64,000 bases of DNA from an uncultured Oscillospiraceae bacterium (GTDB lineage Bacteria > Bacillota > Clostridia > RUG12999), in contig CAYQKW010000001.1 in the NCBI GenBank assembly GCA_964418245.1, forward strand, positions 1,101-65,100, read 5' to 3'. Position 1 is the stretch's first letter. Each line of letters begins with the position of its first letter. The translations under genes and the position numbers were made by a program. Below are positions 973 through 17,703 of this stretch, one piece after another. The notes under the pieces were generated by a model. The model saw only the letters and a list, made by a program, of their open reading frames with translations, did not search any database and was not told the DNA's origin.

Positions 973-1001
973 TTGACTTTTGAATGAAAGTGTGGTATAA
1001 T
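973..1001 (+). promoter_or_regulatory. Sigma-A type promoter of the first GRM transcription unit
   Basis: TTGACT (973-978), 17-nt spacer, TGg-TATAAT (TG at 993-994, -10 at 996-1001). Confidence 0.6.
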
Positions 1002-1264
1002 AAATCTACGGATTAAATAAGCGTCTGCGGACGCAGGATACAAGGTAGATTTATTGATACCGTTTTTATGAATGCAAACCGCTTTGCGGTGCATAAAGGC
1101 AATTTAAATTGGTGGAGCGAAGCGAGAAATCACGGCGAATCCGATTTATGACAACAATAGTTGTCAAATCATTTAAAATGACGGCAGTTGAATTATTTGC
1201 CGATTTTATATCGGCATGTATGCGATTGTGATAAAATAATAAAGGTATAATGCGAGAGGTTTAT
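1002..1264 (+). promoter_or_regulatory. Long structured 5' leader (unclassified cis-regulatory RNA candidate)
   Basis: About 260 nt lie between the -10 box and the ATG at 1265, with at least 5 hairpins. Two of them (1182-1202 and 1199-1215) share nucleotides and are mutually exclusive. I recognise no known riboswitch consensus. Confidence 0.35.
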
Positions 1265-2113
1265 ATGTATAATGTAAAATTATGTCTGGGGACAAGCGAC
1301 CAATTCGGAATAACGGTAAAAGAACAGATAAAATTGTTTAAAGATACGGGATTTGAAGCTTTTTTCGTAAATTGGAGCAAAGGCGAAAATATATCCGAAA
1401 TAAAAGAATATGCGGATTCTCTCGGAATGATTTTTCAGTCTGTACACGCTCCGTTCGGAAAATCGGCGGATATGTGGACAAGCGGAGAAAAAGCAACGAT
1501 TGCCGTTGAAGAACTTTCGGAATGTCTTGCGGATTGTGCCGCAAACAATGTGCCGATTATGGTATGTCATGCGTTTATAGGTTTTGAGGAACACAGCCCA
1601 AGTGAAGTCGGTGTTGAAAATTATCGTAAAGTGGTGGAGAAAGCGAGAAAACTCGGTGTAAAAATCGCATTTGAAAATACAGAGGGTGAAGAATATCTTG
1701 CCGCTTTGATGAAAGCTTTTGATGATTATGAAAATGTTGGATTTTGCTGGGATACAGGACATGAAATGTGTTATAACCGTAGCTGTGATATGATGGAACT
1801 TTACGGAGAAAAAATCATATGTACGCATTTGAATGATAATATAGGAATAAAAGATTACGACGGAACAATTTTCTGGACTGACGATTTGCATTTGCTGCCG
1901 TTTGACGGTGCTGCCGATTGGAAAAATATCGTACACAGACTCAATAAATATAATTATAATGATATACTTACGTTTGAACTTAATAAACTCAGTAAACCGA
2001 ACAGACACGAAAATGACGTGTATGATAAAATGACGATTGAAGAATATATTTGCGAAGCATATAAACGTGCTTGCAAAACGGCGATGCTTAAGACAAGAGA
2101 TTCAAAAGCATAA
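1265..2113 (+). CDS. Sugar phosphate isomerase/epimerase, xylose-isomerase-like TIM barrel (AP endonuclease 2 fold)
   Basis: Family-typical motifs: SVHAPF, CHAF, AFENTEGE, WDTGHE, THLNDN, TFEL. I prefer the start at 1265 (GAGAGG RBS at 1254-1259) over the track start at 1250. Confidence 0.85.
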   Translation: MYNVKLCLGTSDQFGITVKEQIKLFKDTGFEAFFVNWSKGENISEIKEYADSLGMIFQSVHAPFGKSADMWTSGEKATIAVEELSECLADCAANNVPIMVCHAFIGFEEHSPSEVGVENYRKVVEKARKLGVKIAFENTEGEEYLAALMKAFDDYENVGFCWDTGHEMCYNRSCDMMELYGEKIICTHLNDNIGIKDYDGTIFWTDDLHLLPFDGAADWKNIVHRLNKYNYNDILTFELNKLSKPNRHENDVYDKMTIEEYICEAYKRACKTAMLKTRDSKA

Positions 2114-2146
2114 AACGGATTAAAAAAACAAATTTGGTGAATTAAA

Positions 2147-2875
2147 ATGAAACTTATATTTTGTGACCTTGACGGCACGCTGCTGTTTTCAAACAGCAAA
2201 ATACAGCTGCTGCGGACAAAACAACTGCTGCCGAAGCTTAAAGAAGCAGGATATATATTTTGCGTATCGAGCGGACGAGCGTATTTTGAATTGAGAAATT
2301 TTTTCGATGATGCCGATATATATTATTGTGCAAGCGACGGTGCCATATGTGCCAAATCAAAAACAACGCTTTTTGAATTTCCGATAAATAAAGAAGATAT
2401 ACCGAATAATCTGACGGATTTTGCGGCATACGGAAAAGGTATCGCATATGTTAAATCGCATAACGAATATCTGATAAGAAAAATAAAAAAAGCATATAAC
2501 GGATTTATATGCGAAATTTCCGATGTATCTGAGATTAAAGAGAATGTGGCAAAACTTGCACTGTTCGGCAGTAAAATGAACAGTGAATCAAAAAATAAAT
2601 TTAATATTATATATGATAAAAACGGAATTTCGGAACTTGTATCCAAAGGCACCGATAAAGCACGGGCGGCACGTGAGCTTGCCGAAAGGCTTAATATTAA
2701 GCGTGAAGATGTGCTGGCGTTCGGTGATAACGAGAATGACATAAGTCTGTTTGAGTTTGCCGGAAAAAGTTTTGCGGCACCCGGAGCGAACATAAAAGTC
2801 AGACACGCCGCAGATAAGGACTGCGGAAGCGTGTCGGGGGAATTATATAAATTGATTTGCGGAAAGGATGATTAA
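2147..2875 (+). CDS. Cof-type HAD-IIB phosphatase
   Basis: N-terminal FCDLDGTLL nucleophile motif; C-terminal GDNENDISLF motif. The stop codon overlaps the start region of the GRE gene. Confidence 0.85.
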   Translation: MKLIFCDLDGTLLFSNSKIQLLRTKQLLPKLKEAGYIFCVSSGRAYFELRNFFDDADIYYCASDGAICAKSKTTLFEFPINKEDIPNNLTDFAAYGKGIAYVKSHNEYLIRKIKKAYNGFICEISDVSEIKENVAKLALFGSKMNSESKNKFNIIYDKNGISELVSKGTDKARAARELAERLNIKREDVLAFGDNENDISLFEFAGKSFAAPGANIKVRHAADKDCGSVSGELYKLICGKDD

Positions 2876-2876
2876 T

Positions 2877-5378
2877 ATGAAAATAAACGAGGAATATAAA
2901 AATATTGAAAAATCACCGAGAATAGACAGGCTTATTTCGGCACTTTTCGAGAAAATGCCCGAAATTGAAGCGGACAGGGCAGAGCTTATAACCGAATCTT
3001 ATAAGCAGACGGAGCATTTGCCGATAATCACAAGACGTGCGAAAGTATTTGCGCATATACTCAAAAATATACCTATTACAATACGTGAAGATGAACTTAT
3101 CGTGGGCAGTGCAACCAAAGCTCCGAGAGGCTGTCAAACGTTTCCCGAATTTTCATATTCATGGCTTGAAGATGAGTTCGATACGGTAAGCACACGAAAC
3201 GCAGATCCGTTTTATATATCGGAAGAAACAAAAGCACGACTTAAAAAAGTATATCCGTACTGGAAAGGCAAAACAACAAGCGAACTTGCCACAAGTTATA
3301 TGGCTCCCGAAGCAAAACGTGCAATGGAACATAATATATTCACAACCGGAAACTATTTTTACAACGGTGTCGGTCATGTTACGGTTGTTTACGGAAAAGT
3401 GCTTGAAAAAGGCATGAACGGCATTATTGCCGAAGCAAATGCGGAACTTGAAAAATGCAAACCGGAAAATCCTGATTATTTTGAACGTTCAACGTTTTTG
3501 GAAGCGGTTATAGAAAGCTGCGAAGCCGTTAAAATATATGCCGGCAGATATGCGCTTTTGGCACTCGATGAGGCAAAAGAATGCCGTGACGAAAAAAGAA
3601 AAGCCGAACTGCTGCAAATTGCGGAAAACTGCTCAAAAGTACCGGCAGAGGGCGCAAAAAATTATTATGAAGCCTGTCAGTCGTTCTGGTTCATACAGAT
3701 GCTTTTGCAGGTTGAATCAAGCGGACATTCAATTTCACCCGGCAGATTTGATATGTATATGTATCCGTATTTGAAAAACGATACGATAAGCAAAGAATTT
3801 GCACAGGAACTCACGGATTGCATATGGGTTAAATTGAATGATTTAAATAAGGTCAGAGATGCGGCATCCGCAGAGGGATTTGCGGGATACAGCCTTTTCC
3901 AGAATCTCATAGCCGGCGGACAGACAAAAGACGGCAGAGATGCCACAAACGAACTTTCGTATATGTGTATTCAGGCAACAATGCACGTACTTCTGCCGCA
4001 GCCGTCGTTCTCGGTGAGAGTACATAACGGCACACCGCACGATTTTCTGCTTAAAGCGGCGGAACTCACAAGAACCGGTGTGGGACTTCCGGCATATTAC
4101 AACGATGAAGTTATAATTCCGGCACTTATAAGCCGTGGTCTTACAATGGAGGATGCGAGAAATTACAATATAATCGGATGTGTTGAACCTCAGGTGTCGG
4201 GAAAAACGGAGGGATGGCACGATGCGGCATTCTTTAATATGTGTCGTATTTTGGAACTTGTATTCTCGAACGGAGAAGATAACGGCGTAAGAATTTCTCC
4301 GGAAACAGGTGACGTAACAAAAATGGAAACATTTGAAGAATTTTTCGATGCATATAAATCACAGATGAATTATATGATTAAAATGCTTGTTAATTCCGAT
4401 AATGCCATAGATAAAGCCCATGCGGAACGCTGTCCGCTGCCGTTTGAATCGTGTATGGTTGAAGATTGTATAAAACGAGGAAAACCTGTTCAGCAGGGCG
4501 GCGCAATATATAATTTCACCGGACCTCAGGGCTTCGGAATAGCCAATATGGCGGACGGACTTTATGCGGTTAAAAAACTTGTTTACGATGATAAGAAAAT
4601 AACAATGGCGGAACTTAAAGATGCGCTCGAAAACAATTTCGGCAGAGGCGTGAACGAAAAAGAAAGCATTGAAATCACGGCAAGAATCGCAAGTGAACTT
4701 GAAAAATCGGGAATCACGGCAGATGAAAAGGTGATTTCGGGTATATATAACAAAGTAAGCGGCGAATCCGAAAAATATGATTATATTCTTAAACTTATAG
4801 ACGAACTTCCGAAATTCGGAAACGACATAGACGAAGTTGATGAACTGGCGCGTGAAGCGGCATATACATATACGCGTCCTCTCGAACAATATAAAAATCC
4901 GAGGGGCGGAATGTTCCAGGCAGGACTTTATCCGGTATCGGCAAATGTGCCGCTCGGTGCACAGACGGGTGCAACTCCGGACGGAAGGTTTGCATATACG
5001 CCGGTTGCGGACGGTGTTTCGCCGTGTTCCGGAAAGGACGTGAACGGTCCTACGGCGGCGGCAAATTCGGTGGCAAAACTTGACCACGGCATAGCATCAA
5101 ACGGAACTCTGTTCAATATGAAATTCCATCCGTCGGCACTTTCGGGTCTCAGTGGCTTGAATGCATTTGTAAATCTCATAAGAGGATATTTTGACCAAAA
5201 GGGTATGCATATGCAGTTTAACGTTGTAAGCCGAGAAACACTGCTTGATGCGCAGAAACATCCGGAAAAATATAAAAGCCTTGTTGTACGTGTTGCGGGA
5301 TACAGTGCGTTGTTCACAACTCTTTCAAGGTCTTTGCAGGACGATATTATAAGAAGAACGGAGCAAACTTCGTTTTAA
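2877..5378 (+). CDS. Glycyl radical enzyme, diol-dehydratase-like (1,2-propanediol/glycerol dehydratase clade candidate)
   Basis: C-terminal glycyl radical motif VVRVAGYSALF. Thiyl loop GCVEP with Glu at Cys+2 and Asp at Cys+14 (WHDAA). NGVGHV His about 268 residues upstream of the Cys. This spacing matches my memory of B12-independent glycerol dehydratase (His164/Cys433/Glu435/Asp447). Start 2877 preferred (GGAAAGGA RBS); 2868 is the alternative. Confidence 0.93.
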   Translation: MKINEEYKNIEKSPRIDRLISALFEKMPEIEADRAELITESYKQTEHLPIITRRAKVFAHILKNIPITIREDELIVGSATKAPRGCQTFPEFSYSWLEDEFDTVSTRNADPFYISEETKARLKKVYPYWKGKTTSELATSYMAPEAKRAMEHNIFTTGNYFYNGVGHVTVVYGKVLEKGMNGIIAEANAELEKCKPENPDYFERSTFLEAVIESCEAVKIYAGRYALLALDEAKECRDEKRKAELLQIAENCSKVPAEGAKNYYEACQSFWFIQMLLQVESSGHSISPGRFDMYMYPYLKNDTISKEFAQELTDCIWVKLNDLNKVRDAASAEGFAGYSLFQNLIAGGQTKDGRDATNELSYMCIQATMHVLLPQPSFSVRVHNGTPHDFLLKAAELTRTGVGLPAYYNDEVIIPALISRGLTMEDARNYNIIGCVEPQVSGKTEGWHDAAFFNMCRILELVFSNGEDNGVRISPETGDVTKMETFEEFFDAYKSQMNYMIKMLVNSDNAIDKAHAERCPLPFESCMVEDCIKRGKPVQQGGAIYNFTGPQGFGIANMADGLYAVKKLVYDDKKITMAELKDALENNFGRGVNEKESIEITARIASELEKSGITADEKVISGIYNKVSGESEKYDYILKLIDELPKFGNDIDEVDELAREAAYTYTRPLEQYKNPRGGMFQAGLYPVSANVPLGAQTGATPDGRFAYTPVADGVSPCSGKDVNGPTAAANSVAKLDHGIASNGTLFNMKFHPSALSGLSGLNAFVNLIRGYFDQKGMHMQFNVVSRETLLDAQKHPEKYKSLVVRVAGYSALFTTLSRSLQDDIIRRTEQTSF

Positions 5379-5387
5379 GGAGTAATT

Positions 5388-6176
5388 ATGCAGGATTATT
5401 ATAATGAAAAAGGAAGAATTTTCGATATTCAGAAATTTTCCGTTCACGACGGGCCGGGTATACGGACCATAGTTTTTCTTAAAGGTTGTGCAATGCGATG
5501 CCGCTGGTGCTGTAATCCGGAATCGCAGAACGGCGGAATTGAAATTATGAATATGGACGGAAAAGAGAAAACCGTCGGCGAAGACATAACCGCGAAAGAA
5601 GCTATGGAACTGGTTATGAGTGATATGGTTTATTACCGACGTTCGGGCGGAGGACTCACGCTTTCGGGCGGAGAGTGTTTACTGCAACCCGATTTTTCCG
5701 CGGCACTCCTAAGGATAGCAAAAGAAAATGGAATATCCACGGCGATAGAATCTACCGCAAACGTTCCGCTTGAAAATATAGAAAAAGTTTTGACGTATCT
5801 TGATGTGTTTTTGATGGACATAAAAAATATGAACAGCGAAAAACATAAAATGTTTACGGGAATCGGAAACGAAAGAATACTTGAAAATGCGAAAATAACA
5901 GCGAAAAAAGCGAATAAACTTATTGTTCGTGTTCCGGTTATACCGACGTTCAACGCAACCGATTCGGAAATATCAGAGATAGCAAGGTTTGCGGCATCGC
6001 TTGATAACGTAACGGAAATTCATCTGTTGCCGTATCATAGATTGGGGCAGGATAAATACCGCTGGCTTGGCAGAGAATATGCCCTTGAGGGAATATCTCC
6101 GCCGGGAGACGAACTTATGAACAGATTTTTGAAAATTGCCGAAGGCTTTGGGCTTAAGGCACAAATCGGAGGGTGA
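5388..6176 (+). CDS. Glycyl radical enzyme activating enzyme (radical SAM), short PflA-like form
   Basis: CAMRCRWC = CX3CX2C. GGLTLSGGE SAM motif. N-terminal FSVHDGPGIRT motif. Only 5 Cys in 262 aa. Confidence 0.93.
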   Translation: MQDYYNEKGRIFDIQKFSVHDGPGIRTIVFLKGCAMRCRWCCNPESQNGGIEIMNMDGKEKTVGEDITAKEAMELVMSDMVYYRRSGGGLTLSGGECLLQPDFSAALLRIAKENGISTAIESTANVPLENIEKVLTYLDVFLMDIKNMNSEKHKMFTGIGNERILENAKITAKKANKLIVRVPVIPTFNATDSEISEIARFAASLDNVTEIHLLPYHRLGQDKYRWLGREYALEGISPPGDELMNRFLKIAEGFGLKAQIGG

Positions 6177-6178
6177 AT

Positions 6179-6541
6179 ATGGATTTGTTTGACAATAAAG
6201 ATAAAATGCGTATTGTTCAGGAACTCGTTCCGGGCAAGCAAATAACGCTTGCTCATATAATCGCAAATCCCGACAGAATATTATATAAAAAATTGGGACT
6301 TGACCCGAATGCCGAAATGTCCGCAATAGGCATCATAACGATGTCGCCGGCGGAAACCGCAATAATCGCGGGTGATATTGCAATCAAATCTTCGGGAGCG
6401 GAAATCGGTTTTGTTGACCGTTTCAGCGGTACTCTCATAGTGACAGGCAGTGTGTCGCAGGTTCAGACGGCGGTTGCAAGCGTAACCGAATATTGCCGTG
6501 ATACGCTTAAATTTACGGTGTGTGAGATAACAAAAACATGA
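6179..6541 (+). CDS. pduU: Circularly permuted BMC shell protein (PduU/EutS-like)
   Basis: RIVQELVPGKQITLAHIIANPD...IGFVDRFSGTLIVTGSVSQV matches the EutS/PduU pattern. GGAGGG RBS; alternative GTG start at 6173. Confidence 0.85.
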   Translation: MDLFDNKDKMRIVQELVPGKQITLAHIIANPDRILYKKLGLDPNAEMSAIGIITMSPAETAIIAGDIAIKSSGAEIGFVDRFSGTLIVTGSVSQVQTAVASVTEYCRDTLKFTVCEITKT

Positions 6542-6963
6542 GAACGATAATTTTTATGGGGAGGAGCGAAAGCGGAAAAACTTCGCTCACACAAGCAATT
6601 TTAACCGGTAAGGTTGAATATAACAAAACACAGTATATAAATTATTATAACGGCATCATAGATACGCCGGGCGAATATGCCGAAAATAAAATTCTCGGGC
6701 GCGCGCTGGCACTGTATTCTTACGAAGCCGATGTTGTGGGATTGTTGCTTTCGGCAACCGAACAATATTCTTTGTTTCCGCCGAACATAACGTGTATGAC
6801 AACTCGTGAAGTGATAGGCATTGTGACAAAGATAGACCGCGGCGATGCCGACTCGGAACGTGCGGAGCGTTGGCTCAGACTTTCAGGTTGTGAAAAAATC
6901 TTTAAAATAAGCAGCAAAACCGGCGAGGGTATTAATGATTTGATTGATTATTTAACAAAATAA
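6538..6963 (+). CDS. pduV: EutP/PduV-family small GTPase
   Basis: P-loop GRSESGKTS and the DTPGEY motif. The ATGA start overlaps the upstream stop. Confidence 0.85.
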   Translation: MRTIIFMGRSESGKTSLTQAILTGKVEYNKTQYINYYNGIIDTPGEYAENKILGRALALYSYEADVVGLLLSATEQYSLFPPNITCMTTREVIGIVTKIDRGDADSERAERWLRLSGCEKIFKISSKTGEGINDLIDYLTK

Positions 6964-7003
6964 TGCAGATACGACCGCAGACGTGACAGAACGGAGAAAA
7001 AAT

Positions 7004-7783
7004 ATGAAAATTATTATAAGAGTTATGACAGCTAATATTTGGGGAAATTATTTTAATAATCCTGTTTCGGTAAGAGAAGACGGCTTAATAACGGTGTTCG
7101 ATAAATATTCACCCGATGTGTTGGGATTACAGGAGGTTATGGATGAATGGTATAAAAGTAAAATGTTTCCGCAACTTGCCGAAAACTATAATCTGTTCGG
7201 TACGGAAATGTTTAACTCCAATATATTTGTTCCGATGGCGGCACGAAAAGAATTTAAAATTCTTGCAAAAGGATTTGAATATTTTACGGATACACCGGAT
7301 GCTTCAAAATCGGTAGACTGGGCGGTTCTCGAAAATAACGGAAAAGTATTTGCCGTATGCAACACACATTTTTGGTGGATGACGGGAGAAGAACACGATA
7401 AAATAAGAGTAATAAACGCAAAACAAATTTCAGCACTTATGAAATATCTTCATGAACGCTTTAATTGTCCCGTATTTGCTTTCGGTGATATGAATACAAC
7501 AATTTCGAGTGATGTTTTTAAAGTTTATGAGGAAAACGGAATAAAACATCTTTATGACATTGCGGAAGAAAAAGATGATATTACTTCGCATCACGGTGAC
7601 CCGATAAAAGATGAAAACGGAAAATTCCACGGAAAAACTTCGGATAATGACCATACATATTCGATTGACCATATTATTGCACTCGGCGACGGATTTGAAG
7701 TTAAAGAATACAGAGTTGTAACAGACCAAGAAGTTCTCGATGCAACGGATCATTCTCCGGTGTATGCCGATATTGTGCTTTGA
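7004..7783 (+). CDS. Endonuclease/exonuclease/phosphatase (EEP) family protein
   Basis: EEP motifs: LGLQEV, NTHFWW, FGDMNT, and SIDHII...TDHSPVYADI at the C-terminus. Start taken at the ATG after a GGAG RBS; the track start is a GTG at 6983. Confidence 0.8.
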   Translation: MKIIIRVMTANIWGNYFNNPVSVREDGLITVFDKYSPDVLGLQEVMDEWYKSKMFPQLAENYNLFGTEMFNSNIFVPMAARKEFKILAKGFEYFTDTPDASKSVDWAVLENNGKVFAVCNTHFWWMTGEEHDKIRVINAKQISALMKYLHERFNCPVFAFGDMNTTISSDVFKVYEENGIKHLYDIAEEKDDITSHHGDPIKDENGKFHGKTSDNDHTYSIDHIIALGDGFEVKEYRVVTDQEVLDATDHSPVYADIVL

Positions 7784-7847: not shown

Positions 7848-7876
7848 TTGACATTTCATTTGTTTTGTGGTATTAT
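7848..7876 (+). promoter_or_regulatory. Sigma-A type internal promoter ahead of the aldolase-to-pduL unit
   Basis: TTGACA (7848-7853), 17-nt spacer, TGg-TATTAT (7871-7876). Lies in the 204-nt gap after the EEP gene. Confidence 0.55.
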
Positions 7877-7987: not shown

Positions 7988-8794
7988 ATGGTATCAGAAT
8001 ACGAAATCAAAAAAGAAATCTGTGAAATCGGAAAAAGAATTTACAACAGAGGCATGGTTGCCGCAAACGACGGTAATATTTCCGTTAAATTGAACGACAA
8101 TGAATTTCTTTGCACACCTACGGGCGTAAGTAAAGGTTTCATGACACCCGATTATATTTGTAAAGTTGATAAAGACGGAAACGTTTTGCAGGCAAACGGA
8201 AACTTCAAACCGTCATCGGAAATAAAAATGCACATGAGAGTATATGCTCAAAGACCTGACGTTAATTCGGTTGTTCATGCTCATCCTACATATGCAACAA
8301 GCTTTGCAATCGCAGGTATTCCGCTCACACAGCCCATAATGCCCGAAGCGGTTATAGCACTCGGATGCGTACCTATAGCAGAATACGGCACACCGTCAAC
8401 AATGGAAATTCCGGATGCTGTTGAAAAATATCTCCAGCATTACGATGCGGTTCTTCTTGAAAACCACGGAGCACTTGCATATTCGGATTCACTTCTTGCG
8501 GCTTATCATAAAATGGAATCGCTTGAATTTTATGCTGAACTTCTGTTCAAATCAAGACTTCTCGGCGGTCCGAAAGAACTTTCGCAGAGCCAGGTTGAAA
8601 GACTTTATGAAATCAGACGTCAGTTCGGTATGACGGGTAAACATCCGGCAGATTTATGTCCGAATGCAAAAGAAGGCAAAAAGAGCTGTCACAGCTGCGG
8701 AGCTTGCGGAAGCAAAAAAGCCGAAACATCGGCAGCAGATGAAGATGTAATCGCTGCTATTACCAAAAAGGTAATGGAACAGCTCGGCAAATAA
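7988..8794 (+). CDS. Class II aldolase (fuculose-/rhamnulose-1-phosphate aldolase-like) with Cys-rich linker and C-terminal encapsulation-peptide-like helix
   Basis: Zn ligand pattern HAHP...ENHG and the SSEIKMH acid/base Glu. An extra ~55 aa tail contains C224-x9-C-x2-C-x2-C240 and the amphipathic EDVIAAITKKVMEQL. Confidence 0.9.
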   Translation: MVSEYEIKKEICEIGKRIYNRGMVAANDGNISVKLNDNEFLCTPTGVSKGFMTPDYICKVDKDGNVLQANGNFKPSSEIKMHMRVYAQRPDVNSVVHAHPTYATSFAIAGIPLTQPIMPEAVIALGCVPIAEYGTPSTMEIPDAVEKYLQHYDAVLLENHGALAYSDSLLAAYHKMESLEFYAELLFKSRLLGGPKELSQSQVERLYEIRRQFGMTGKHPADLCPNAKEGKKSCHSCGACGSKKAETSAADEDVIAAITKKVMEQLGK

Positions 8795-9599: not shown

Positions 9600-10786
9600 A
9601 CTTAAGTTCAGACAAAATAGAAGAAATCGTAAAACAGGTATTGACCGAAATGGGCGGCACAGCCGCACCGGCATCGCGTGATATACCGAAAACAAGCCGC
9701 GTTGCCATGCTTACCGGGCTTGAAAATTACGAAATAAAAGAATTTCCGATTCCCGAAATCGGCGATGATGATATTCTTGTTAAAGTTGAAGGCTGCGGTG
9801 TATGCGGTACGGATGCTCATGAATTTAAAAGAGACCCGTTCGGGCTTATCCCTGTTGTACTCGGTCATGAGGGTACCGGCGAGATAGTTAAAATGGGTAA
9901 AAACGTTAAAAAAGACAGTGCCGGTAAACCGCTCGGTATAGGTGATAAAGTTGTTACCTGCATGATATTTAAAGATAACCCGGATATTACAATGTTCGAT
10001 TTAAACAAACAAAACGTTGGCGGTGCCGATGTATACGGACTTTTACCCGATGACGATATTCATCTTAACGGATGGTTTGCGGATTATCTTGTTATACGAA
10101 AAGGTTCGACAGTGTTTAATGTAAGTGATTTAAGCCTTGATATGCGTATACTCATAGAACCGTGCGCAGTGCTTATTCACGCTGTTGAAAGAGCAAAATC
10201 GACAGGTATTTTAAGATTTAATTCACGTGTTGCCGTTCAGGGATGCGGACCTATAGGTCTTATTTGTATTGCTGTTCTGCGTACAATGGGGATTGAAAAT
10301 ATCGTAGCCGTTGACGGTGAGGACAAACGTCTTGCGTTTGCCAAAGAAATGGGTGCGGAAAAATCCGTAAACTTCAAAGAACATAAAGGTATAGATGCGC
10401 TTGCAAAAGCTGTTGAAGACGCATTCGGCGGTTATCCGGCGGATTTTGCGTTCCAGTGTACGGGGTCACCGGTCGCACACAGCAATATATATAAATTCAT
10501 AAGAAACGGCGGCGGTTTATGTGAACTCGGATTCTTCATAAACGGCGGCGATGCAACAATTAATCCGCATTTTGACCTTTGTTCAAAAGAAATTACACTT
10601 GTCGGCTCATGGGTATATACATTAAGAGATTACGCAACAACGTTCGATTTCTTAAAACGTGCAAAAGCTATCGGTCTTCCGATGGAAAAGCTTATAACGC
10701 ACAAATTCCCACTCAGTCAGATTAATGAAGCACACAAAACAAACCTTGCAATGCAAGGACTTAAAATAGCAATAATAAATGAATAA
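9596..10786 (+). CDS. Zn-dependent medium-chain alcohol dehydrogenase with N-terminal encapsulation-peptide-like extension
   Basis: GCGVCGTDAHEF and VLGHEGTGEIV Zn-ADH motifs; GCGPIGL Rossmann motif. About 35 aa N-terminal extension SDKIEEIVKQVLTEMGG followed by a Pro/Ala linker. Confidence 0.9.
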   Translation: MNLSSDKIEEIVKQVLTEMGGTAAPASRDIPKTSRVAMLTGLENYEIKEFPIPEIGDDDILVKVEGCGVCGTDAHEFKRDPFGLIPVVLGHEGTGEIVKMGKNVKKDSAGKPLGIGDKVVTCMIFKDNPDITMFDLNKQNVGGADVYGLLPDDDIHLNGWFADYLVIRKGSTVFNVSDLSLDMRILIEPCAVLIHAVERAKSTGILRFNSRVAVQGCGPIGLICIAVLRTMGIENIVAVDGEDKRLAFAKEMGAEKSVNFKEHKGIDALAKAVEDAFGGYPADFAFQCTGSPVAHSNIYKFIRNGGGLCELGFFINGGDATINPHFDLCSKEITLVGSWVYTLRDYATTFDFLKRAKAIGLPMEKLITHKFPLSQINEAHKTNLAMQGLKIAIINE

Positions 10787-10802: not shown

Positions 10803-11081
10803 ATGGCACAGGAAGCACTCGGAATGATAGAAACAAGAGGTTTGGTTGCGGCAATAGAAGCAGCCGATGCAATGGTTAAAGCAGCAGAGGTAACACTCAT
10901 AGGAACAGAGAAAATAGGTTCGGGTCTCGTATCCGTTATGGTAAGAGGTGACGTAGGCGCGGTTAAAGCAGCAACGGAAGCGGGAAGCGCAAGCGCTCAG
11001 AGACTCGGAGAACTTATTGCGGTACACGTAATTCCCCGTCCTCACGGTGATGTTGAAAAAATTCTGCCGACACTTAAATAA
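10803..11081 (+). CDS. BMC-H hexameric shell protein (PduA/EutM-like), copy 1
   Basis: [28 protein letters not shown]... is a canonical Pfam00936-type sequence. AGGAGG RBS. Confidence 0.95.
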
Positions 11082-11096: not shown

Positions 11097-11447
11097 ATGG
11101 CTGAAGCAAAAAAAGGCAAAAAGCCTATAATAAAAGAAGAAACAAAAATTATTAAGGAGGAAATAAAAATGGCACAGGAAGCACTCGGAATGATAGAAAC
11201 AAGAGGTTTGGTTGCGGCAATAGAAGCAGCCGATGCAATGGTTAAAGCGGCAAACGTAGTATTGATAGGAACAGAGAAAATAGGTTCGGGTCTCGTATCC
11301 GTTATGGTGAGAGGTGACGTCGGTGCGGTTAAATCCGCAACGGAAGCGGGTCAGGCCGCCGCACAAAGACTCGGTGAAATAATTGCGGTACACGTAATTC
11401 CCCGTCCTCACGGCGATGTTGAAAAAATTCTGCCGACACTTAAATAA
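11097..11447 (+). CDS. BMC-H shell protein, copy 2, with optional 24-aa Lys-rich N-terminal extension (second in-frame start at 11169)
   Basis: GGAGG + 8 nt + ATG at 11097, and AAGGAGG + 8 nt + ATG at 11169. The region from 11169 on is a 92-aa BMC-H. Confidence 0.9.
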
Positions 11448-11467
11448 TTTATAACGGTTGTGAGAAT

Positions 11468-11734
11468 ATGATAATCGGTAAGGTTGTGGGAAGTCTTGTT
11501 TCCACAAGAAAAAACGAAAAATTAATCGGCAATAAATTTCTTATAGTACAGCCGGCAAAGTCAATGTCCGACGGAAAAAATCTTGTCGCAACAGATGATG
11601 TCGGTGCCGGAATAGGCGAGATTGTTCTTGTTGCCACGGGCAGTGCGGCAAGAGTTGGGTGCGGCGCACCCGATTCGCCTATCGACGCGGCTATAGTCGG
11701 AATTGTTGACGATGGCGCGGATTTGGAGATATAA
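11468..11734 (+). CDS. pduN: BMC-P pentameric vertex protein (EutN/PduN/CcmL family)
   Basis: MIIGKVVGSLVSTRKNEKLIGNKFLIVQP...IVGIVD matches the EutN pattern. Confidence 0.9.
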   Translation: MIIGKVVGSLVSTRKNEKLIGNKFLIVQPAKSMSDGKNLVATDDVGAGIGEIVLVATGSAARVGCGAPDSPIDAAIVGIVDDGADLEI

Positions 11735-11737
11735 GTT

Positions 11738-13081
11738 ATGCAGATTAATGAGTTAAAACAATTGTTAAGAGAAAACGGAATCGTAGGAGCGGGCGGCGCA
11801 GGCTTCCCGTCCTACGCTAAACTTGATTTAAGGGCAAATACGGTTATTCTCAATTGTGCCGAATGTGAACCGCTGTTAAAACTGCACAGACAAATGCTTG
11901 AAAAATATGCTTATGAAATAGTAAGTACACTTGCGGTTATAGCCGATGCGGTTGAAGCGGATGAGTTTGTAATTGCCGTTAAAGGCAGTTACAAGGGTGC
12001 GGTTTCGGCGGTGAAAAATGTAATCGGCGAGTTCAAAAAAGGACGTATCGGGATTTTGCCGGAAATGTATCCGGCAGGTGATGAGGTTGTTACGATATAT
12101 GAAACCACCGGCAGAGTTGTTCCGCCGGGTAATCTGCCGATTTCCGTCGGCTGTATAGTGTATAATGTTGAAACGGTATATAATATGTATTGTGCAATAA
12201 ATTCAAAATTGCCCGTAACGCATAAATACGTTACGGTAGCCGGCGAGGTTAAAGAACCGAAAACAATAAAAGCTCCGCTCGGAACAAGCTTCAAAACGCT
12301 TATTGATATGTGCGGAGGAGTTACGGCAGAAAACATACGTATAATCAGCGGCGGTCCTATGACGGGTAATCTTGCCGATGAATACGGTGTTGTTACAAAA
12401 ACCACAAACGGTATACTTGTAATGTCCGAAAATCATGAGATTGTTTTGAAACGTCTTGCAAATGTCGGACTTGAAATTAAACGTGCAATGAGTGTTTGCT
12501 GTCAGTGCCGTGCCTGTACGGAACTGTGTTCGAGAAACTTGCTTGGGCAACCCATTGAACCGCATAAATTTATGCGCGCACTTTCAAGAAATGTTATAAC
12601 AGACCCGCAGGATATGATTAATACAATGTATTGTTCAAGTTGCGGAATATGCGAAATGTATGCTTGTCCGCAGGGACTTAATCCGCGTTCGCTGATTGCG
12701 GAATATAAAGCCGGATTACGTAAAAACGGAATAAAACCGACAGCACTCGAAGAATTTGACGAGGTACGCGACGACAGAGAATATCGTCTTGTGCCAATGC
12801 ACAGGCTTAAGGAACGCCTTGACCTTATAAAATACGATATTAACGCTCCGATAACGGATGAAATACCGAATGAAAAACGAATTAAAATTATGCTTTCTCA
12901 GCATATAGGCGCACCGGCGAAACCGGTTGTTAAAACGGGTGATAAGGTTGTTGCCGCTCAGGTGATTGCAAAAACAGATGATTCGGCACTGGGCGTGAAT
13001 ATTCATGTACCGGAGAACGGAATTGTTGAGGAGATAACAGATAGATTTATTATAATAGCGGTCGGCGCCGGAAAGGAATGA
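11738..13081 (+). CDS. pduS: PduS-like / RnfC-like flavin Fe-S oxidoreductase
   Basis: GAGGAGFPSYAKL nucleotide motif and NCAECEPLL. Two ferredoxin-type clusters: CCQCRACTELC and CSSCGICEMYAC. Confidence 0.85.
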   Translation: MQINELKQLLRENGIVGAGGAGFPSYAKLDLRANTVILNCAECEPLLKLHRQMLEKYAYEIVSTLAVIADAVEADEFVIAVKGSYKGAVSAVKNVIGEFKKGRIGILPEMYPAGDEVVTIYETTGRVVPPGNLPISVGCIVYNVETVYNMYCAINSKLPVTHKYVTVAGEVKEPKTIKAPLGTSFKTLIDMCGGVTAENIRIISGGPMTGNLADEYGVVTKTTNGILVMSENHEIVLKRLANVGLEIKRAMSVCCQCRACTELCSRNLLGQPIEPHKFMRALSRNVITDPQDMINTMYCSSCGICEMYACPQGLNPRSLIAEYKAGLRKNGIKPTALEEFDEVRDDREYRLVPMHRLKERLDLIKYDINAPITDEIPNEKRIKIMLSQHIGAPAKPVVKTGDKVVAAQVIAKTDDSALGVNIHVPENGIVEEITDRFIIIAVGAGKE

Positions 13082-13088
13082 AACAAAG

Positions 13089-13637
13089 ATGGCAAATGCA
13101 ATAGGTATGGTTGAATATGTAACGGTATCAATCGGTGTTCAGGCGGCTGATATAATGGTTAAAACGTCTGAGGTTGATATACTTGAAGCAAAGGTCGTTT
13201 GTCCGGGTAAATACATAGTTATAATAAGCGGAGATTTAAGTGCCGTTAATGCGGCGGTTGAAGCTTCTAAGGTGAAATTCCCGAAGAAACTTATAGACAG
13301 TTTTGTACTCGGCAATCCGCATGAGTCCATTTATCCGGCAATGTACGGCACAAGCGTTGTTGAAGACGTGAATGCACTCGGTGTGATAGAAACATTTTCG
13401 GCGGCATCGGCGATAGTTGCGGCAGATGTATGTGCAAAAACATCAATAGTAGACCTTATAGAACTCCGTCTTGCTCACGGTATGTGCGGCAAGTCGTATG
13501 TGATGATAACCGGTGAAGTTGCCGCTGTTCAGGCTGCAATCGAAAAAGCAAAAGCCGGTACGGGCGACAAGGGTATGCTGCTTGACAGTGCCGTTATACC
13601 GCGTCCGGACAAAAAACTTATAAAAAGTATTATTTAA
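13089..13637 (+). CDS. pduT: BMC-T tandem-domain shell protein, PduT-like
   Basis: Two BMC domains in 182 aa. Cys38 (VVCPGKY) sits where PduT ligates the pore [4Fe-4S] cluster (from memory). Confidence 0.85.
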   Translation: MANAIGMVEYVTVSIGVQAADIMVKTSEVDILEAKVVCPGKYIVIISGDLSAVNAAVEASKVKFPKKLIDSFVLGNPHESIYPAMYGTSVVEDVNALGVIETFSAASAIVAADVCAKTSIVDLIELRLAHGMCGKSYVMITGEVAAVQAAIEKAKAGTGDKGMLLDSAVIPRPDKKLIKSII

Positions 13638-13687
13638 CCTGAATATCGGCGGTAATTTTGCCGGTATATTTGAAAGAGGTGTTAAAC

Positions 13688-15073
13688 TTGGCAATAGATG
13701 AAGAAAGAATAAGCAAAATTGTGGAGCAGGTTGTGAAAAGCATGAAATCCGCTCCAAAGAAACAGCTTGGCGTGTTCGATAATATGACGGACGCACTTGA
13801 AGCCGTGAATGCGGCTTACAAAACATTTCGCAGTTACACAATAGAACAGCGCGAAAAAATGATTTCAAAAATACGTGAATTTACACTTGAAGAAGCTGAA
13901 AATCTCGCTCGTCTCGGAGTTGAAGAAACGGGAATGGGAAGAGTTGAAGATAAAGTTATAAAACATCAGTTGGTTGCAAACAAAACGCCTGGTACGGAAG
14001 ATTTGAAAACAAGTGCGTTCAGCGGCGATGCCGGACTTACTCTTATAGAACAAGCACCGTTCGGTGTAATCGGAAGCATAACGCCGTCCACAAATCCGAG
14101 CGAAACAGTAATTTGTAATTCAATCGGTATGATAGCCGGAGGAAACGCGGTTGTGTTTAATCCGCATCCGAATGCAAAGAGAACGGCAAACTATGCGGTT
14201 GATTTGGTAAACCGTGCGATTTTGGAAGCCGGCGGTCCCGAAAATCTTGTTGTAACAGTTGAAAATCCAACAAAAGAATCTTCGGACGAAATGATGAAAG
14301 CTCCAATAGTTCGTATGCTTGTTGCAACGGGCGGTCCCGGAGTTGTTAAAGCACTGTTATCCTCCGGTAAAAAAGCAATCGGGGCTGGTGCAGGAAATCC
14401 GCCTGTTATCGTTGATGATACAGCAGATATTCAAAAAGCCGGAAAAGATATTGTTCTCGGCGCAAGTTTCGATAATAACCTGCCGTGTATAGCAGAGAAA
14501 GAATGTTTTGTTTTTGAAAATAAAGCAGATGAGCTTATCGAAGCTATGAAAGCAAACGGTGCATATTACATAAATGCGGAGCAGACCGAAAAACTTAAAA
14601 ATATAATTCTTAAAGAGAATAACGGTAAATGGTCAATCAATAAAGATTGGGTAGGCAAAGATGCACGTCTTTTCCTTAAAGCAATCGGAATTGATGCAGA
14701 CCCCCGTCTTGTAATCTGCGAAACAACAAACGAGCATCCGTTCGTTCAGACGGAAATGATGATGCCTGTACTTGCAATCGTTCGTGTTAATAATATTGAT
14801 GAAGCGGTTGAAAAAGCTGTTGCGGCAGAACACGGCAACAGACATTCGGCACATATCCATTCCAAAAACATAGATAACATAACAAAATTCGCAAAAGCTG
14901 TGGAAACAACGATTTTTGTTAAAAATGCTCCGTCGTATGCCGGTATAGGTGCGGGCGGCGAGGGATATACAACTTTCACAATTGCAGGTCCCACGGGCGA
15001 AGGACTGACGGCGGCACATTCGTTCACACGTCAGCGCCGCTGTGTTATGGTAGATGCAATGCATATTATTTAA
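13688..15073 (+). CDS. pduP: CoA-acylating aldehyde dehydrogenase (PduP/EutE-like) with N-terminal encapsulation-peptide-like helix
   Basis: ALDH core including NNLPCIAEKE (catalytic Cys). N-terminus AIDEERISKIVEQVVKSMKS. Preferred start is the TTG at 13688, 8 nt after a GAAAGAGG RBS; the track start is the TTG at 13658. Confidence 0.88.
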   Translation: MAIDEERISKIVEQVVKSMKSAPKKQLGVFDNMTDALEAVNAAYKTFRSYTIEQREKMISKIREFTLEEAENLARLGVEETGMGRVEDKVIKHQLVANKTPGTEDLKTSAFSGDAGLTLIEQAPFGVIGSITPSTNPSETVICNSIGMIAGGNAVVFNPHPNAKRTANYAVDLVNRAILEAGGPENLVVTVENPTKESSDEMMKAPIVRMLVATGGPGVVKALLSSGKKAIGAGAGNPPVIVDDTADIQKAGKDIVLGASFDNNLPCIAEKECFVFENKADELIEAMKANGAYYINAEQTEKLKNIILKENNGKWSINKDWVGKDARLFLKAIGIDADPRLVICETTNEHPFVQTEMMMPVLAIVRVNNIDEAVEKAVAAEHGNRHSAHIHSKNIDNITKFAKAVETTIFVKNAPSYAGIGAGGEGYTTFTIAGPTGEGLTAAHSFTRQRRCVMVDAMHII

Positions 15074-15088
15074 AGAGGAGTTAAAATT

Positions 15089-15730
15089 ATGAAAGCACTT
15101 GGCATGATAGAGGTTTACAGCTTTACAACGGCGGTATGCACGGCTGATGTATGTGCAAAAGCGGCAGATGTAAAAGTTATTGCCTTTGACAGGAACAGAC
15201 CGTTTGCACCGTCTGCTCCGGCTCCGCTTATAATGATTGTTAAAATAGAAGGCAGTGTTTCGGCGGTGCGCGCCGCGGTAGATGCCGGCGTGAATTATGC
15301 AAAATCGCTCAATAAATACATTGTATCCCATATAATAGCAAATCCCGGAGACGATGTTGATATAATGGCATATAAACTTGATATCAACAAGGATAAGTAT
15401 AATAAAAAATTACCAAAATCGTTTCTCAATGCAGAGTATGATGAGCAAAGCCCAAAGTCGATAGGACTTTTGGAAGTACAAGGGCTTGTTGCGTCGATAG
15501 AGGGTCTTGATTCGATGCTCAAAGCGGCGGAAGTGAGACTTGTACATACAGAAAAACGGCTCGGCGGAAGGCTTGTTACACTTGTTGTAACCGGGAATAT
15601 ATCCGCGGTAAAATCTGCGTTGGAAACCGGTAAAGAAAAGGCGGCGGCACTCGGAACGGTATACGGTTGTGAAGCAATACCCAATCTCCATAGTGAAGTT
15701 GCAAAGTTTTTTGACTTTGAAATTGAATAA
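15089..15730 (+). CDS. BMC-T tandem-domain shell protein (second type)
   Basis: Two BMC domains (MKALGMIEVYSF... and SIGLLEVQGLVASIEGLDSMLKAAEV...) joined by a Lys/Asn-rich linker. Confidence 0.85.
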   Translation: MKALGMIEVYSFTTAVCTADVCAKAADVKVIAFDRNRPFAPSAPAPLIMIVKIEGSVSAVRAAVDAGVNYAKSLNKYIVSHIIANPGDDVDIMAYKLDINKDKYNKKLPKSFLNAEYDEQSPKSIGLLEVQGLVASIEGLDSMLKAAEVRLVHTEKRLGGRLVTLVVTGNISAVKSALETGKEKAAALGTVYGCEAIPNLHSEVAKFFDFEIE

Positions 15731-15812
15731 CCGAATTGAGAATTACTCATATATGCGGCCGATTCCGCCGAAAACGCTGAATGACGGGGCTTTGCCCCAT
15801 TATTGAAAGAAA
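15723..15812 (+). repeat. Intergenic element copy A (three collinear blocks shared with 32007-32125)
   Basis: TTGAATAACCGAA (spans the stop codon) ... TGAATGACGGGGCT with GGGGC-ttt-GCCCC hairpin ... TATTGAAAgAAAGG (RBS). Confidence 0.5.
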
Positions 15813-15825
15813 GGATTGATTTTAA

Positions 15826-16104
15826 ATGGCACAGGAAGCACTCGGTATGATAGAAACAAGAGGTCTGGTTGCGGCAATAGAAGCGGCAGATGCAATGGTT
15901 AAAGCGGCAAATGTTGTATTGATAGGGACAGAAAAAATAGGTTCAGGTCTTGTATCTGTGATGATACGCGGCGATGTTGGTGCAGTGAAATCTGCCACGG
16001 AAGCAGGCAGAAACGCGGCCGAGAAACTCGGAGAAATAATTGCGGTACACGTAATTCCCCGTCCTCACGGCGATGTTGAAAAAATTCTTCCTACATTAAA
16101 ATAA
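15826..16104 (+). CDS. BMC-H hexameric shell protein, copy 3
   Basis: 92 aa and nearly identical to the copy-2 core. Differences are V46I in VMIRG and a few residues in the GRNAAEK segment. Confidence 0.95.
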
Positions 16105-16118
16105 AAGGAGAATAAACA

Positions 16119-16751
16119 ATGCTTGATGTAAAGGAAATAGAAAAAGCCGTTGCGAAAGCAATTGCCGAATATAAAGCAGACGGAATAAAAATAGGCGTTT
16201 CTCAAAGGCATATTCATTTGTCTGCCGAAGATTTGGAAAAATTATTCGGAAAAGGATATGAACTCACAAAGAAGAAGACGCTTATGGGCAGGGAATATGC
16301 TGCCGAAGAAACCGTTACGCTTGTCGGTCCGTCGCTTCGGGCAATAGAAAAAGTGAGGGTTTTGGGTCCCGTAAGAAAAAATACACAGGTTGAAGTTTCC
16401 AGAACAGATACTTTTGTACTTAAAGTAAGTCCGCCGGTACGTCCGTCGGGCGACATAAAAGGTTCGGAACGTATTGCCGTTGTTGGTCCGAAAGGCACAA
16501 TATATCTTAAAGAAGGCGTAATCATTGCCAATCGACATATTCATCTCACACCGGAATATGCCGCAAAAGAAGGGCTTAATGACGGTGATTATGTTGACGT
16601 ACTTGCCGAAGGAATAAAACCCACAAAATTCTATGATGTACAAATTCGTGTGCGTGAAGATTTCAATACCGAAATGCATATTGATATAGATGACGCGAAT
16701 GCGGCAGGTCTCAGAAACGGCGACAGGGTTAAAATTGTGAGAAAAAAATAA
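16119..16751 (+). CDS. pduL: Phosphate propanoyl/acyl-transferase PduL with N-terminal encapsulation-peptide-like helix
   Basis: Duplicated RHIHL motifs (SQRHIHLSAEDL, ANRHIHLTPEYA). N-terminus VKEIEKAVAKAIAEY. Confidence 0.9.
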   Translation: MLDVKEIEKAVAKAIAEYKADGIKIGVSQRHIHLSAEDLEKLFGKGYELTKKKTLMGREYAAEETVTLVGPSLRAIEKVRVLGPVRKNTQVEVSRTDTFVLKVSPPVRPSGDIKGSERIAVVGPKGTIYLKEGVIIANRHIHLTPEYAAKEGLNDGDYVDVLAEGIKPTKFYDVQIRVREDFNTEMHIDIDDANAAGLRNGDRVKIVRKK

Positions 16752-16761
16752 CTGATTCAAG

Positions 16762-16804
16762 GCGGATACCACCGTTAAGAACGGCGGTATCCGTTTGGTT
16801 TTTC
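16762..16804 (+). terminator. Rho-independent terminator ending the BMC operon
   Basis: CGGATACCaCCGTT-aaga-AACGGcGGTATCCG followed by tttggttttt. Confidence 0.7.
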
Positions 16805-16947
16805 TCACAGGTGAAAACAGTCTGCACATTTATTCAATACAGAACGTGAAATATAAATTGAATGATGTATATACCGCTGTCTTGAAATTGAAAGCACGGG
16901 AGCGGAATTAATTATTGAAGAGAACCGATTTTTACGGAGGTGAACAA

Positions 16948-17703
16948 ATGTTTGCGCTTGAACGTCAAAAGCATATATTGGAAGCGTTGAAAGAAGAAGG
17001 TTCGGTTTCGGTCAAAAGCTTAAGCAAGGCACTTTCGGTTACGGAGGAAACAATTCGCCGTGATTTGGAAAAATTGGAAAAAGAAGATGCGTTAATGCGA
17101 ACTCATGGCGGAGCAATCCTGATGGACAATCAAGAAATGCCGCTTGAAAAACGTAAGCAGACAAACACGGTTATAAAAGAAAGACTGGCAAAAGAAGCTG
17201 TTAAGTTTATAATGCCGGGGGATACAGTGTTTCTTGACGCATCAACAACGACGTTTTTTATTGCAAAAGAATTGAAAAAACGCAAAAAAATCACTGTTGT
17301 AACAAATTCGTTGAGAATTTTAAACGAACTGGACGGCGATACGGATATTAAAGTTATCTCTGTCGGAGGGCTTATGAGTCAGAACCAGTCATTAATCGGC
17401 AGTCGTGCGGAAAATTGCATAAAAGAGAATTATTATGCGAATAAAATGTTTTTCAGCAGCCGCGGTATCAGTATAGATGCGGGAGTGCTGGAAAGCAACG
17501 AACAGGAATGTGCGGTAAAACAGTGTATGCTCAAAAATGCAAGAGCAAAGTTTTATATGTTTGACCGCTCGAAAGTCGGAAGAATAGGACTTTCAAAGCT
17601 TGCACGTTTTGATGAGATTAATCACGTTATAGCCGAAAAGAATTTTTCGGAAGAACTCCGCAGAAAATTTGATGAACATAATATAGAAATACATGAAATT
17701 TAA
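16948..17703 (+). CDS. DeoR-family transcriptional regulator (likely locus regulator)
   Basis: N-terminal HTH: ERQKHILEALKEEGSVSVKSLSKALSVTEETIRRDLEKLE. DeoR C-terminal sugar-phosphate sensor domain. ATG after a GGAGGTG RBS; the track start is a TTG at 16915. Confidence 0.9.
   Translation: MFALERQKHILEALKEEGSVSVKSLSKALSVTEETIRRDLEKLEKEDALMRTHGGAILMDNQEMPLEKRKQTNTVIKERLAKEAVKFIMPGDTVFLDASTTTFFIAKELKKRKKITVVTNSLRILNELDGDTDIKVISVGGLMSQNQSLIGSRAENCIKENYYANKMFFSSRGISIDAGVLESNEQECAVKQCMLKNARAKFYMFDRSKVGRIGLSKLARFDEINHVIAEKNFSEELRRKFDEHNIEIHEI

Follow-up and report, generated by a model that had tools for sequence, protein, structure and literature searches.

A bacterial microcompartment (BMC) locus in an uncultured Oscillospiraceae bacterium raises the question of whether unfamiliar accessory genes mark an organelle with unfamiliar chemistry. 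The locus lies on contig CAYQKW010000001.1 (GenBank assembly GCA_964418245.1), in a stretch of 64,000 nucleotides (contig positions 1,101 to 65,100, forward strand) that was analysed as a whole and is referred to here as the window. It is built around a glycyl radical enzyme (GRE). An earlier note had likened its core to the GRE-associated microcompartments (GRMs) of the fucose/rhamnose type (GRM5), set out six features as foreign to that type, and proposed either a GRM5 variant fed by a different phospho-sugar branch or a true substrate other than 1,2-propanediol. We judge that the locus quite probably encodes a GRM5 metabolosome (fucose/rhamnose to propanediol) accompanied by two or three extra genes for predicted phosphate-ester hydrolases. 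This reading starts from four observations: the family membership of the gene products, the conserved active site of the GRE, the architecture of the operon and the conservation of its promoters.

The GRE groups with characterized propanediol dehydratases. Its best match in the PDB is the Roseburia inulinivorans diol dehydratase (5I2A, 1265 bits), to which it aligns in one unbroken stretch (12-834) with 556 of 823 positions identical (67.6%). The non-BMC glycerol dehydratase of Clostridium butyricum (1R8W) follows at 1048 bits, in two stretches with a break at residue 593, and behind it come PflD/YbiW, CutC (539 bits or less), HypD, IslA and others. Alignment to 5I2A confirmed the motifs NGVGH, GCVEP (Cys438 and Glu440), Asp at Cys+14 and RVAGYSALF, and the window enzyme shares all of H166, S284, F344, C438, E440, D452, V696 and G817 (5I2A numbering) with that structure; on the strength of this identity and of the overall similarity, the GRE nests with the characterized propanediol dehydratases. 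It also carries the internal insertion that, in GRM5 enzymes, is about 60 aa long and a predicted encapsulation peptide (Ferlez 2019, PMC6325248), so that both parts of this GRM5 signature, the 1,2-propanediol dehydratase clade and the insertion, are present. The activase contains only Radical_SAM and Fer4_12 domains, and longer activase models match it in pieces around a gap. It thus lacks the ferredoxin-like insertion of about 70 aa, whose absence is confined to GRM5 activases (Ferlez 2019, PMC6325248).

These results bear directly on the second proposal of the earlier note, that the GRE has a substrate other than 1,2-propanediol and the locus represents a new functional GRM type. A general caution about imprecise annotation of GRE eliminases and the unusual neighbouring genes would favour it, but the window enzyme has the same active-site and pocket residues as the characterized enzyme 5I2A, which leaves a non-propanediol substrate unsupported. 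The window GRE and the GREs of standard GRM5 loci, Blautia among them, moreover match 5I2A equally well, and the set of aldolase, zinc alcohol dehydrogenase (Zn-ADH), aldehyde dehydrogenase (AldDH) and PduL is unchanged. We regard a different substrate as extremely unlikely.

The remainder of the core is equally that of GRM5, which is defined by a propanediol dehydratase GRE, a PF00596 aldolase and a PF00107/PF08240 lactaldehyde reductase, with PduS and PduT present in 57 of 57 loci (Ferlez 2019, PMC6325248). The window locus has the PF00596 aldolase, a zinc-dependent medium-chain dehydrogenase/reductase (Zn-MDR) as its alcohol dehydrogenase rather than an iron enzyme, and homologues of both PduS and PduT. 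The Zn-ADH had been counted as an anomaly in the earlier note, which associated an iron-dependent enzyme (Fe-ADH) with this type. The published loci say otherwise: the alcohol dehydrogenase of the C. phytofermentans and Roseburia loci is a zinc-dependent MDR enzyme (Petit 2013, PMC3557285), and Axen 2014 (PMC4207490) explicitly describes zinc-binding alcohol dehydrogenase Pfams in GRM5 in place of the usual iron type, so that, with the definition above, a Zn-MDR enzyme is canonical. PduV and PduO-like genes are included in the Roseburia locus (Petit 2013, PMC3557285), and Axen 2014 (PMC4207490) names DeoR, DUF336 and 'a hydrolase' among GRM5 ancillary genes.

We compared the window with 80 loci whose GREs are 70-92% identical to its own, obtained by scanning one genome per species, and scored gene presence by tblastn with all window proteins. 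The loci come from Blautia, Faecalimonas, Acutalibacteraceae, Oscillospiraceae, Anaerocolumna and many uncultured Clostridia. The aldolase was found in 65 of them (67-93% identical) and the Zn-ADH in 62 (73-95% identical), followed by PduS (51/80), PduV (47/80), AldDH (44/80) and DUF336 (38/80), with PduL and DeoR shared as well; gene maps of four representative loci display the identical core set and no further genes. Given this shared gene set and the 67.6% identity to 5I2A, the assignment of the core to the GRM5 type with a propanediol-dehydratase-like GRE holds. Two loci of the Lachnospiraceae type carry a second class II aldolase directly 5' of the GRE, beside the usual downstream copy (L004, 9154-9969; L005, 9205-9969). 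In another group (L020, L021, L025, L027, L029, L034, L060, L063, L066, L068 and L072) the GRE and activase are equally similar and the available sequence holds no aldolase, Zn-ADH or AldDH; some of these end at contig edges, and others may be stand-alone or differently organized propanediol dehydratase loci.

Known GRM5 loci (Roseburia inulinivorans, C. phytofermentans Cphy_1174-1187, Blautia/Ruminococcus) resemble the window in the GRE clade with its insertion and short activase, in the class II aldolase, Zn-MDR alcohol dehydrogenase, acylating AldDH and PduL, and in PduS/PduT, the PduU-like protein, the BMC-H/BMC-P set, PduV, DUF336 and DeoR. They differ from it in three respects: the window has genes for an AP_endonuc_2/xylose-isomerase-like TIM barrel and a Cof-type HAD phosphatase 5' of the GRE and an EEP-family phosphoesterase gene after PduV, and the N-terminal domain of its Zn-ADH is a separate open reading frame (ORF) of 112 aa. 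Its gene order, with AldDH and PduL towards the 3' end, is that of a sub-architecture of uncultured Clostridia and Oscillospiraceae and not the Blautia order.

The absence of sugar genes, another of the six features, proved to be no peculiarity. The 64-kb window contains no fucose or rhamnose isomerase, kinase or dedicated permease, as the earlier note had said, and the remaining 46 kb are housekeeping (SbcCD, MnmE, TsaD, V-ATPase, MutS2, transketolase and others). In the known GRM5 loci the fucose/rhamnose genes are encoded elsewhere in the genome. Unrelated housekeeping sequence likewise fills the 10 kb 5' of the GRM5 loci in Blautia schinkii and Faecalimonas, so that a locus of this type with no fucose/rhamnose genes beside it is nothing unusual.

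The 112-aa protein, left as unknown by the earlier note, appears to be a detached piece of the Zn-ADH. It has no match in Pfam or NCBIfam and only 8 close relatives in an index of 5.8 billion proteins. In three related loci (L003, L007 and L010), however, the Zn-ADH bears an in-frame N-terminal extension of 117-123 aa that is homologous to it (phmmer E 7e-8 to 1e-6; fused ORFs at 14872-16440 in L003 and 14775-16322 in L010), whereas the window and one further locus, L001, have the separate ORF. Between these two, the ratio of nonsynonymous to synonymous substitution rates (dN/dS) is 0.09, and the ORF is thus a real coding gene. The protein is best read, from these alignments, as a split-off accessory domain of the Zn-ADH, and a role in assembly or packaging is a reasonable guess. 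We found no description of such a split or fused domain in Petit 2013, in Ferlez 2019 or in the parts of Axen 2014 that deal with GRM5. It is a small lead that could matter for enzyme packaging or assembly.

The layout of the locus is given in Table 1. Twenty-one co-oriented genes on the + strand span 1250-17703 (ORF listing with Pfam and NCBIfam scans), and the genes listed in the earlier note, its seven shell genes and the GRE motifs are all present there. The two transcription units it had proposed fit two promoter-like sites, P1 and P2. Unit 1 runs from the TIM barrel through the Cof-HAD, GRE, activase, 122-aa BMC protein and PduV to the EEP gene; after a gap of 204 nt, which holds P2 as the head of unit 2, come the aldolase, DUF336, 112-aa ORF, Zn-ADH, two BMC-H genes and BMC-P, then PduS, the PduT-like tandem BMC, AldDH, a second tandem BMC, BMC-H, PduL and DeoR.

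The closest related locus, L001 (contig CAKVOK010000004.1, a metagenome-assembled genome of an uncultured Clostridia member from the Hadza gut), shows which parts of this layout are conserved. Identities to the window are 92% for the GRE, 95% for the Zn-ADH, 93% for the aldolase, 80% for the HAD and 81% for the 112-aa ORF. The P1 region (window 936-999) is 94% identical to L001 9178-9241, directly 5' of the L001 HAD gene, and matches the sequence 5' of the L010 HAD gene at 86%; the P2 region (window 7793-7866) is 96% identical to L001 14214-14287. Because both promoters are conserved, the TIM gene can be placed inside unit 1 and the EEP gene at its end. L001 has no TIM gene, its P1 abuts the HAD gene and a pst-phoU operon lies upstream. 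Since P1 abuts HAD in both L001 and L010, the TIM gene and its 250-nt leader appear to have been inserted between a conserved promoter and HAD; no terminator-like site was seen between TIM and HAD, so co-transcription is expected. L001 also lacks the EEP gene, and has instead a GDSL/SGNH hydrolase gene (14323-15063) 3' of P2, whereas the window EEP lies 5' of P2.

The HAD phosphatase is the least unusual of the three additions. Among the 72 loci with enough upstream sequence, a Cof-HAD gene leads, directly 5' of the GRE, in 11 (~15%; L001, L002, L003, L007, L008, L010, L014, L030, L043, L048 and L050), and the window gene has a dN/dS of 0.13 against L001. This distribution marks HAD as an optional gene that recurs in one GRM5 sub-clade, so it is not peculiar to the window. 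The earlier note had called the TIM-HAD head of the operon unusual; that is right for the TIM gene, which tblastn at E up to 1 found in 0 of the 80 loci, and overstated for HAD.

The predicted metal site makes the TIM-barrel protein a probable metallo-phosphoesterase and an unlikely sugar isomerase. Residues H66, H107, E142, D168, H171, H193, D212, H214 and E243 are invariant in the family, for which a cut-off of E 1e-5 gives about 3,900 members. Of these residues, H107, E142, D168, H171 and H193 match the metal ligands of endonuclease IV from E. coli (hhalign, probability 81%; a provisional match, as the Nfo sequence used did not come from a database), and in a profile search the first five positions align with the endonuclease 4 structure 8EDD. 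Epimerases of this fold have a four-ligand E-D-H-E metal site; the TIM family has five further invariant His/Asp residues for which such epimerases have no need. A substitute fucose/rhamnose isomerase was considered and is made unlikely by this endonuclease IV-like ligand set together with the non-sugar contexts of the homologues.

The best NCBIfam match of the TIM protein is CbiR (34.6 bits, under the cut-off of 105), a cobamide-remodelling phosphodiesterase (PMC7733943), and against Nfo it scores 22.2 bits, under the family cut-off of 244. The protein thus shares with CbiR and endonuclease IV (AP endonuclease 2 superfamily) a fold and apparently the same His/Asp/Glu metal ligands, but scores far under both cut-offs; no cobamide genes occur in the window or beside the TIM homologues. 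The AlphaFold2 model is confident (pLDDT 92.9), and its top Foldseek matches are UlaE, D-tagatose 3-epimerase and IolI at TM-scores of 0.7 and 10-19% identity, a resemblance at superfamily level only. Homologues at 70-77% identity have scattered neighbours (beside bacA, after a V-ATPase operon, beside a GH2 glycosidase), none of them in a GRM locus.

The EEP protein has a different distribution. The earlier note had considered it unusual for GRM5, and it is indeed absent from all 80 related loci (tblastn, E up to 1). Its two closest homologues, P0122 (75%) and P0123 (77%), nevertheless both lie inside GRM loci, in the order BMC-EEP-PduV as against BMC-PduV-EEP in the window. L084 has an EEP gene without HAD or TIM and a GRE 71% identical to that of the window. 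The three GRM-locus EEPs are mutually 75-84% identical, whereas homologues at 63% or below have surroundings other than a GRM locus, with glycogen phosphorylase and rplS flanking the gene in one case and an ABC transporter preceding it in another; among 18 loci of EEP relatives from a metagenome scan, none was linked to a GRM. A small EEP clade therefore appears, from gene neighbourhoods, to have been recruited into GRM5 loci, and a phosphoesterase clade found only inside GRM loci is a second small lead.

The catalytic set of the EEP protein is intact, with N18, E51, D169, N171, D229, H230, D256 and H257 invariant. Its nearest folds are uncharacterized Bacteroides EEPs and the mannose-6-phosphatase BT3783 (TM-score about 0.76), ahead of TDP2 and deadenylases. 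These BT3783-type sugar phosphatases (PDB 4C1R, 3MPR, 3G6S) are the nearest structural neighbours of the model and share its catalytic residues, at only about 20% sequence identity, and a role for the window EEP as a sugar-phosphate phosphatase is plausible on the model. BT3783 works outside the cytoplasm, on phosphorylated mannan; the window EEP, by contrast, is encoded in a cytoplasmic operon and has no obvious signal sequence.

The weak nuclease matches of the two proteins invite another explanation, in which TIM and EEP are DNA-repair phosphodiesterases co-induced against DNA damage from leaking propionaldehyde. The best sequence matches of TIM do point to deoxyribonuclease IV/endonuclease 4 and those of EEP to exodeoxyribonuclease III/TDP2, and Sampson and Bobik are said to have reported, in 2008, that propionaldehyde is genotoxic in Salmonella Pdu shell mutants. 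The scores, however, lie far under the cut-offs (for exodeoxyribonuclease III, Xth, 38.3 against 280 bits; for Nfo as given above), nucleases resemble the EEP fold less than do the Bacteroides EEPs of the sugar-phosphatase type, and CbiR outscores Nfo as a match for TIM. To our knowledge, aldehyde adducts are not classic substrates of AP endonucleases. We consider a repair function very unlikely.

A simpler account would make TIM and EEP neutral passengers, conserved stand-alone genes without a functional tie to the microcompartment whose landing place happened to be a highly expressed operon. Both families occur mostly in non-GRM contexts, both genes are missing from the nearest relative, and their GC contents (0.37 for TIM, 0.36 for EEP) are lower than those of the core microcompartment genes (0.42-0.43), which is consistent with later insertion. 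The GDSL gene of L001 occupies the same PduV-aldolase junction as the window EEP, in another arrangement relative to the promoter (P2 then GDSL; EEP then P2). This suggests that the junction accepts different hydrolase genes by lineage, and it seems to be an insertion hot spot. What a neutral landing would hardly produce by chance is the EEP pattern, in which EEPs of 75-84% identity all sit in GRM loci despite GREs only ~71% identical and differing gene orders. As this argument covers EEP alone, the passenger explanation is likely for TIM and less so for EEP; for the two genes together we consider it possible but on balance doubtful. The arrival of TIM in the locus was probably a single recent event, to judge from its distribution, and its presence there could be functionally neutral. 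Ratios of nonsynonymous to synonymous polymorphism (pN/pS) of about 0.2 place both TIM and EEP under purifying selection.

It is also possible that a different phospho-sugar branch feeds the GRM5 organelle, as the earlier note had suggested. In its developed form, TIM, HAD and EEP would be the cytosolic front end of a GRM5 sub-variant, a feeder module whose precursor, phosphorylated or linked through a phosphodiester, might be an unusual sugar phosphate, a sugar nucleotide or a fragment of a phosphoglycan and whose product would be propanediol, a ketose or a deoxyhexose, and would open deoxyhexose or propanediol sources closed to the classic fucose/rhamnose pathways. In its favour are three predicted phosphate-ester hydrolases: a TIM protein with endonuclease IV-like ligands, a Cof-type sugar phosphatase and an EEP near the BT3783 fold, all under purifying selection and all predicted to be co-transcribed with the GRE from the conserved P1, with the EEP clade specific to GRM loci and HAD recurrent in related ones. 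Yet the three are never found together elsewhere (EEP without HAD or TIM in L084, HAD alone in 11 loci, TIM in no other locus), L001 does without two of them, the close TIM homologues stand in unrelated contexts and the neighbouring genes point to no candidate substrate or transporter. We think such a module unlikely.

Of the six supposed anomalies, then, four dissolve (Zn-ADH, absent fucose/rhamnose genes, 112-aa ORF and, to some extent, HAD), and EEP and TIM remain. The earlier note had named two findings that would tell against its proposals: nesting of the GRE with characterized propanediol dehydratases is borne out, whereas TIM and EEP are not routine in GRM5 loci (0/80 each). Both genes are unusual here, yet there is no sign of altered organelle chemistry.

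On family membership and the published GRM5 model, the encoded pathway would begin with L-fuculose-1-phosphate or L-rhamnulose-1-phosphate, formed by enzymes whose genes would lie elsewhere in the genome, which the class II aldolase would split into dihydroxyacetone phosphate and L-lactaldehyde. The Zn-ADH with its detached 112-aa domain would reduce lactaldehyde to 1,2-propanediol, the GRE, activated by its radical-SAM partner, would convert this to propionaldehyde, and AldDH and PduL would carry propionaldehyde through propionyl-CoA to propionyl-phosphate; the Zn-ADH could also yield propanol. A shell of the seven BMC proteins would enclose the pathway, with PduS/PduT as its predicted electron supply and DeoR as its control. 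HAD, EEP and TIM have no obvious terminal extension fit for an encapsulation peptide, and should therefore act in the cytosol. Our best guess, of low confidence, is that HAD and EEP trim or relieve cytosolic sugar-phosphate pools linked to deoxyhexose catabolism, and that TIM is a recently relocated housekeeping gene now co-transcribed with the locus.

Three points weigh against reading the locus as a GRM5 metabolosome with extra hydrolase genes. The substrate specificity of GRE eliminases is not fully readable from sequence and annotations can be imprecise (2026 review); any role given to HAD, EEP or TIM is a guess, the Foldseek matches of TIM reaching superfamily level only; and TIM and EEP are both missing from L001, the closest relative, which makes these two dispensable for core function. 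Fucose and rhamnose from host and diet are the material from which the GRM5 organelles of gut Clostridia make propionate and propanol, and the leads offered by the EEP clade and the Zn-ADH domain leave this picture of organelle function unchanged.

Table 1. Features of the GRM5 locus, in window coordinates; everything 3' of the EEP gene is listed under unit 2.
Feature	Unit	Position	Strand	Evidence or remark
P1 promoter-like site, TTGACT-17-TATAAT + upstream TG	1	973..1001	+	strong; head of transcription unit 1; 973 = -35 box
Leader of ~250 nt, P1 to TIM gene	1	1002..1249	+	not in L001; small hairpin 1021-1034
AP_endonuc_2/xylose-isomerase-like TIM barrel, predicted endonuclease-IV-like metallo-phosphoesterase	1	1250..2113	+	PF01261, 86.5 bits; start probably Met6 at 1265
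Cof-type HAD-IIB phosphatase	1	2147..2875	+	PF08282 Hydrolase_3, 138 bits; 8-nt overlap with GRE start
Glycyl radical 1,2-propanediol dehydratase (GRE) with internal insertion	1	2868..5378	+	insertion = predicted encapsulation peptide
GRE activating enzyme, radical SAM, 262 aa	1	5388..6176	+	short form without ferredoxin insert
BMC-domain shell protein, 122 aa	1	6173..6541	+	PduU-like gene position of other loci; homologue in 52/80 related loci
PduV/EutP GTPase	1	6538..6963	+	Pfam/NCBIfam scan
EEP-family metal phosphoesterase (predicted)	1	6983..7783	+	last gene of unit 1; PF03372, 38 bits; start probably Met8 at 7004
P2 promoter-like site, TTGACA-17-TATTAT + upstream TG	2	7848..7876	+	strong; head of unit 2, within EEP-aldolase gap
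Class II aldolase, fuculose/rhamnulose-phosphate type, C-terminal extension	2	7988..8794	+	PF00596, 176 bits
DUF336/HbpS-like (PduO C-terminal-like) protein	2	8797..9276	+	
112-aa protein, probable detached Zn-ADH N-terminal domain	2	9261..9599	+	4-nt overlap with ADH start
Medium-chain Zn alcohol dehydrogenase, predicted GRM5 lactaldehyde reductase/propanol dehydrogenase	2	9596..10786	+	PF00107 + PF08240
BMC-H shell protein	2	10803..11081	+	
BMC-H shell protein	2	11097..11447	+	
BMC-P (EutN/CcmL) vertex protein	2	11468..11734	+	
PduS-like flavin/Fe-S oxidoreductase	2	11738..13081	+	
Tandem-BMC (PduT-like) shell protein	2	13089..13637	+	
CoA-acylating aldehyde dehydrogenase	2	13658..15073	+	NF011927, 680 bits
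Tandem-BMC shell protein, 213 aa	2	15089..15730	+	
BMC-H shell protein	2	15826..16104	+	
PduL phosphotransacylase	2	16119..16751	+	
DeoR-family regulator	2	16915..17703	+	

Several smaller observations concern control of the locus and its borders. The leader between P1 and the TIM gene has no Rfam match (E up to 0.1, positions 1-22000 scanned), which gives no support to a riboswitch or other RNA element there, nor does it resemble the sequence 5' of TIM homologues. A direct repeat, TTTGAATG, lies on either side of the P1 -35 box (963-970 and 979-986) and is a possible DeoR operator; a comparison by eye gave no convincing operator common to P1 and P2. The left boundary is a strong bidirectional terminator-like hairpin at 827-850 (10 bp stem, 7 GC pairs), which divides an upstream 159-aa ORF from the locus. 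Just 3' of the locus, a small and separate cluster at 17775-22837 comprises a class I/II aminotransferase (- strand), a second DeoR regulator, a major facilitator superfamily (MFS) transporter and a pyridoxal phosphate (PLP)-dependent (PALP) enzyme, and has a strong promoter-like site of its own at 19252-19280.

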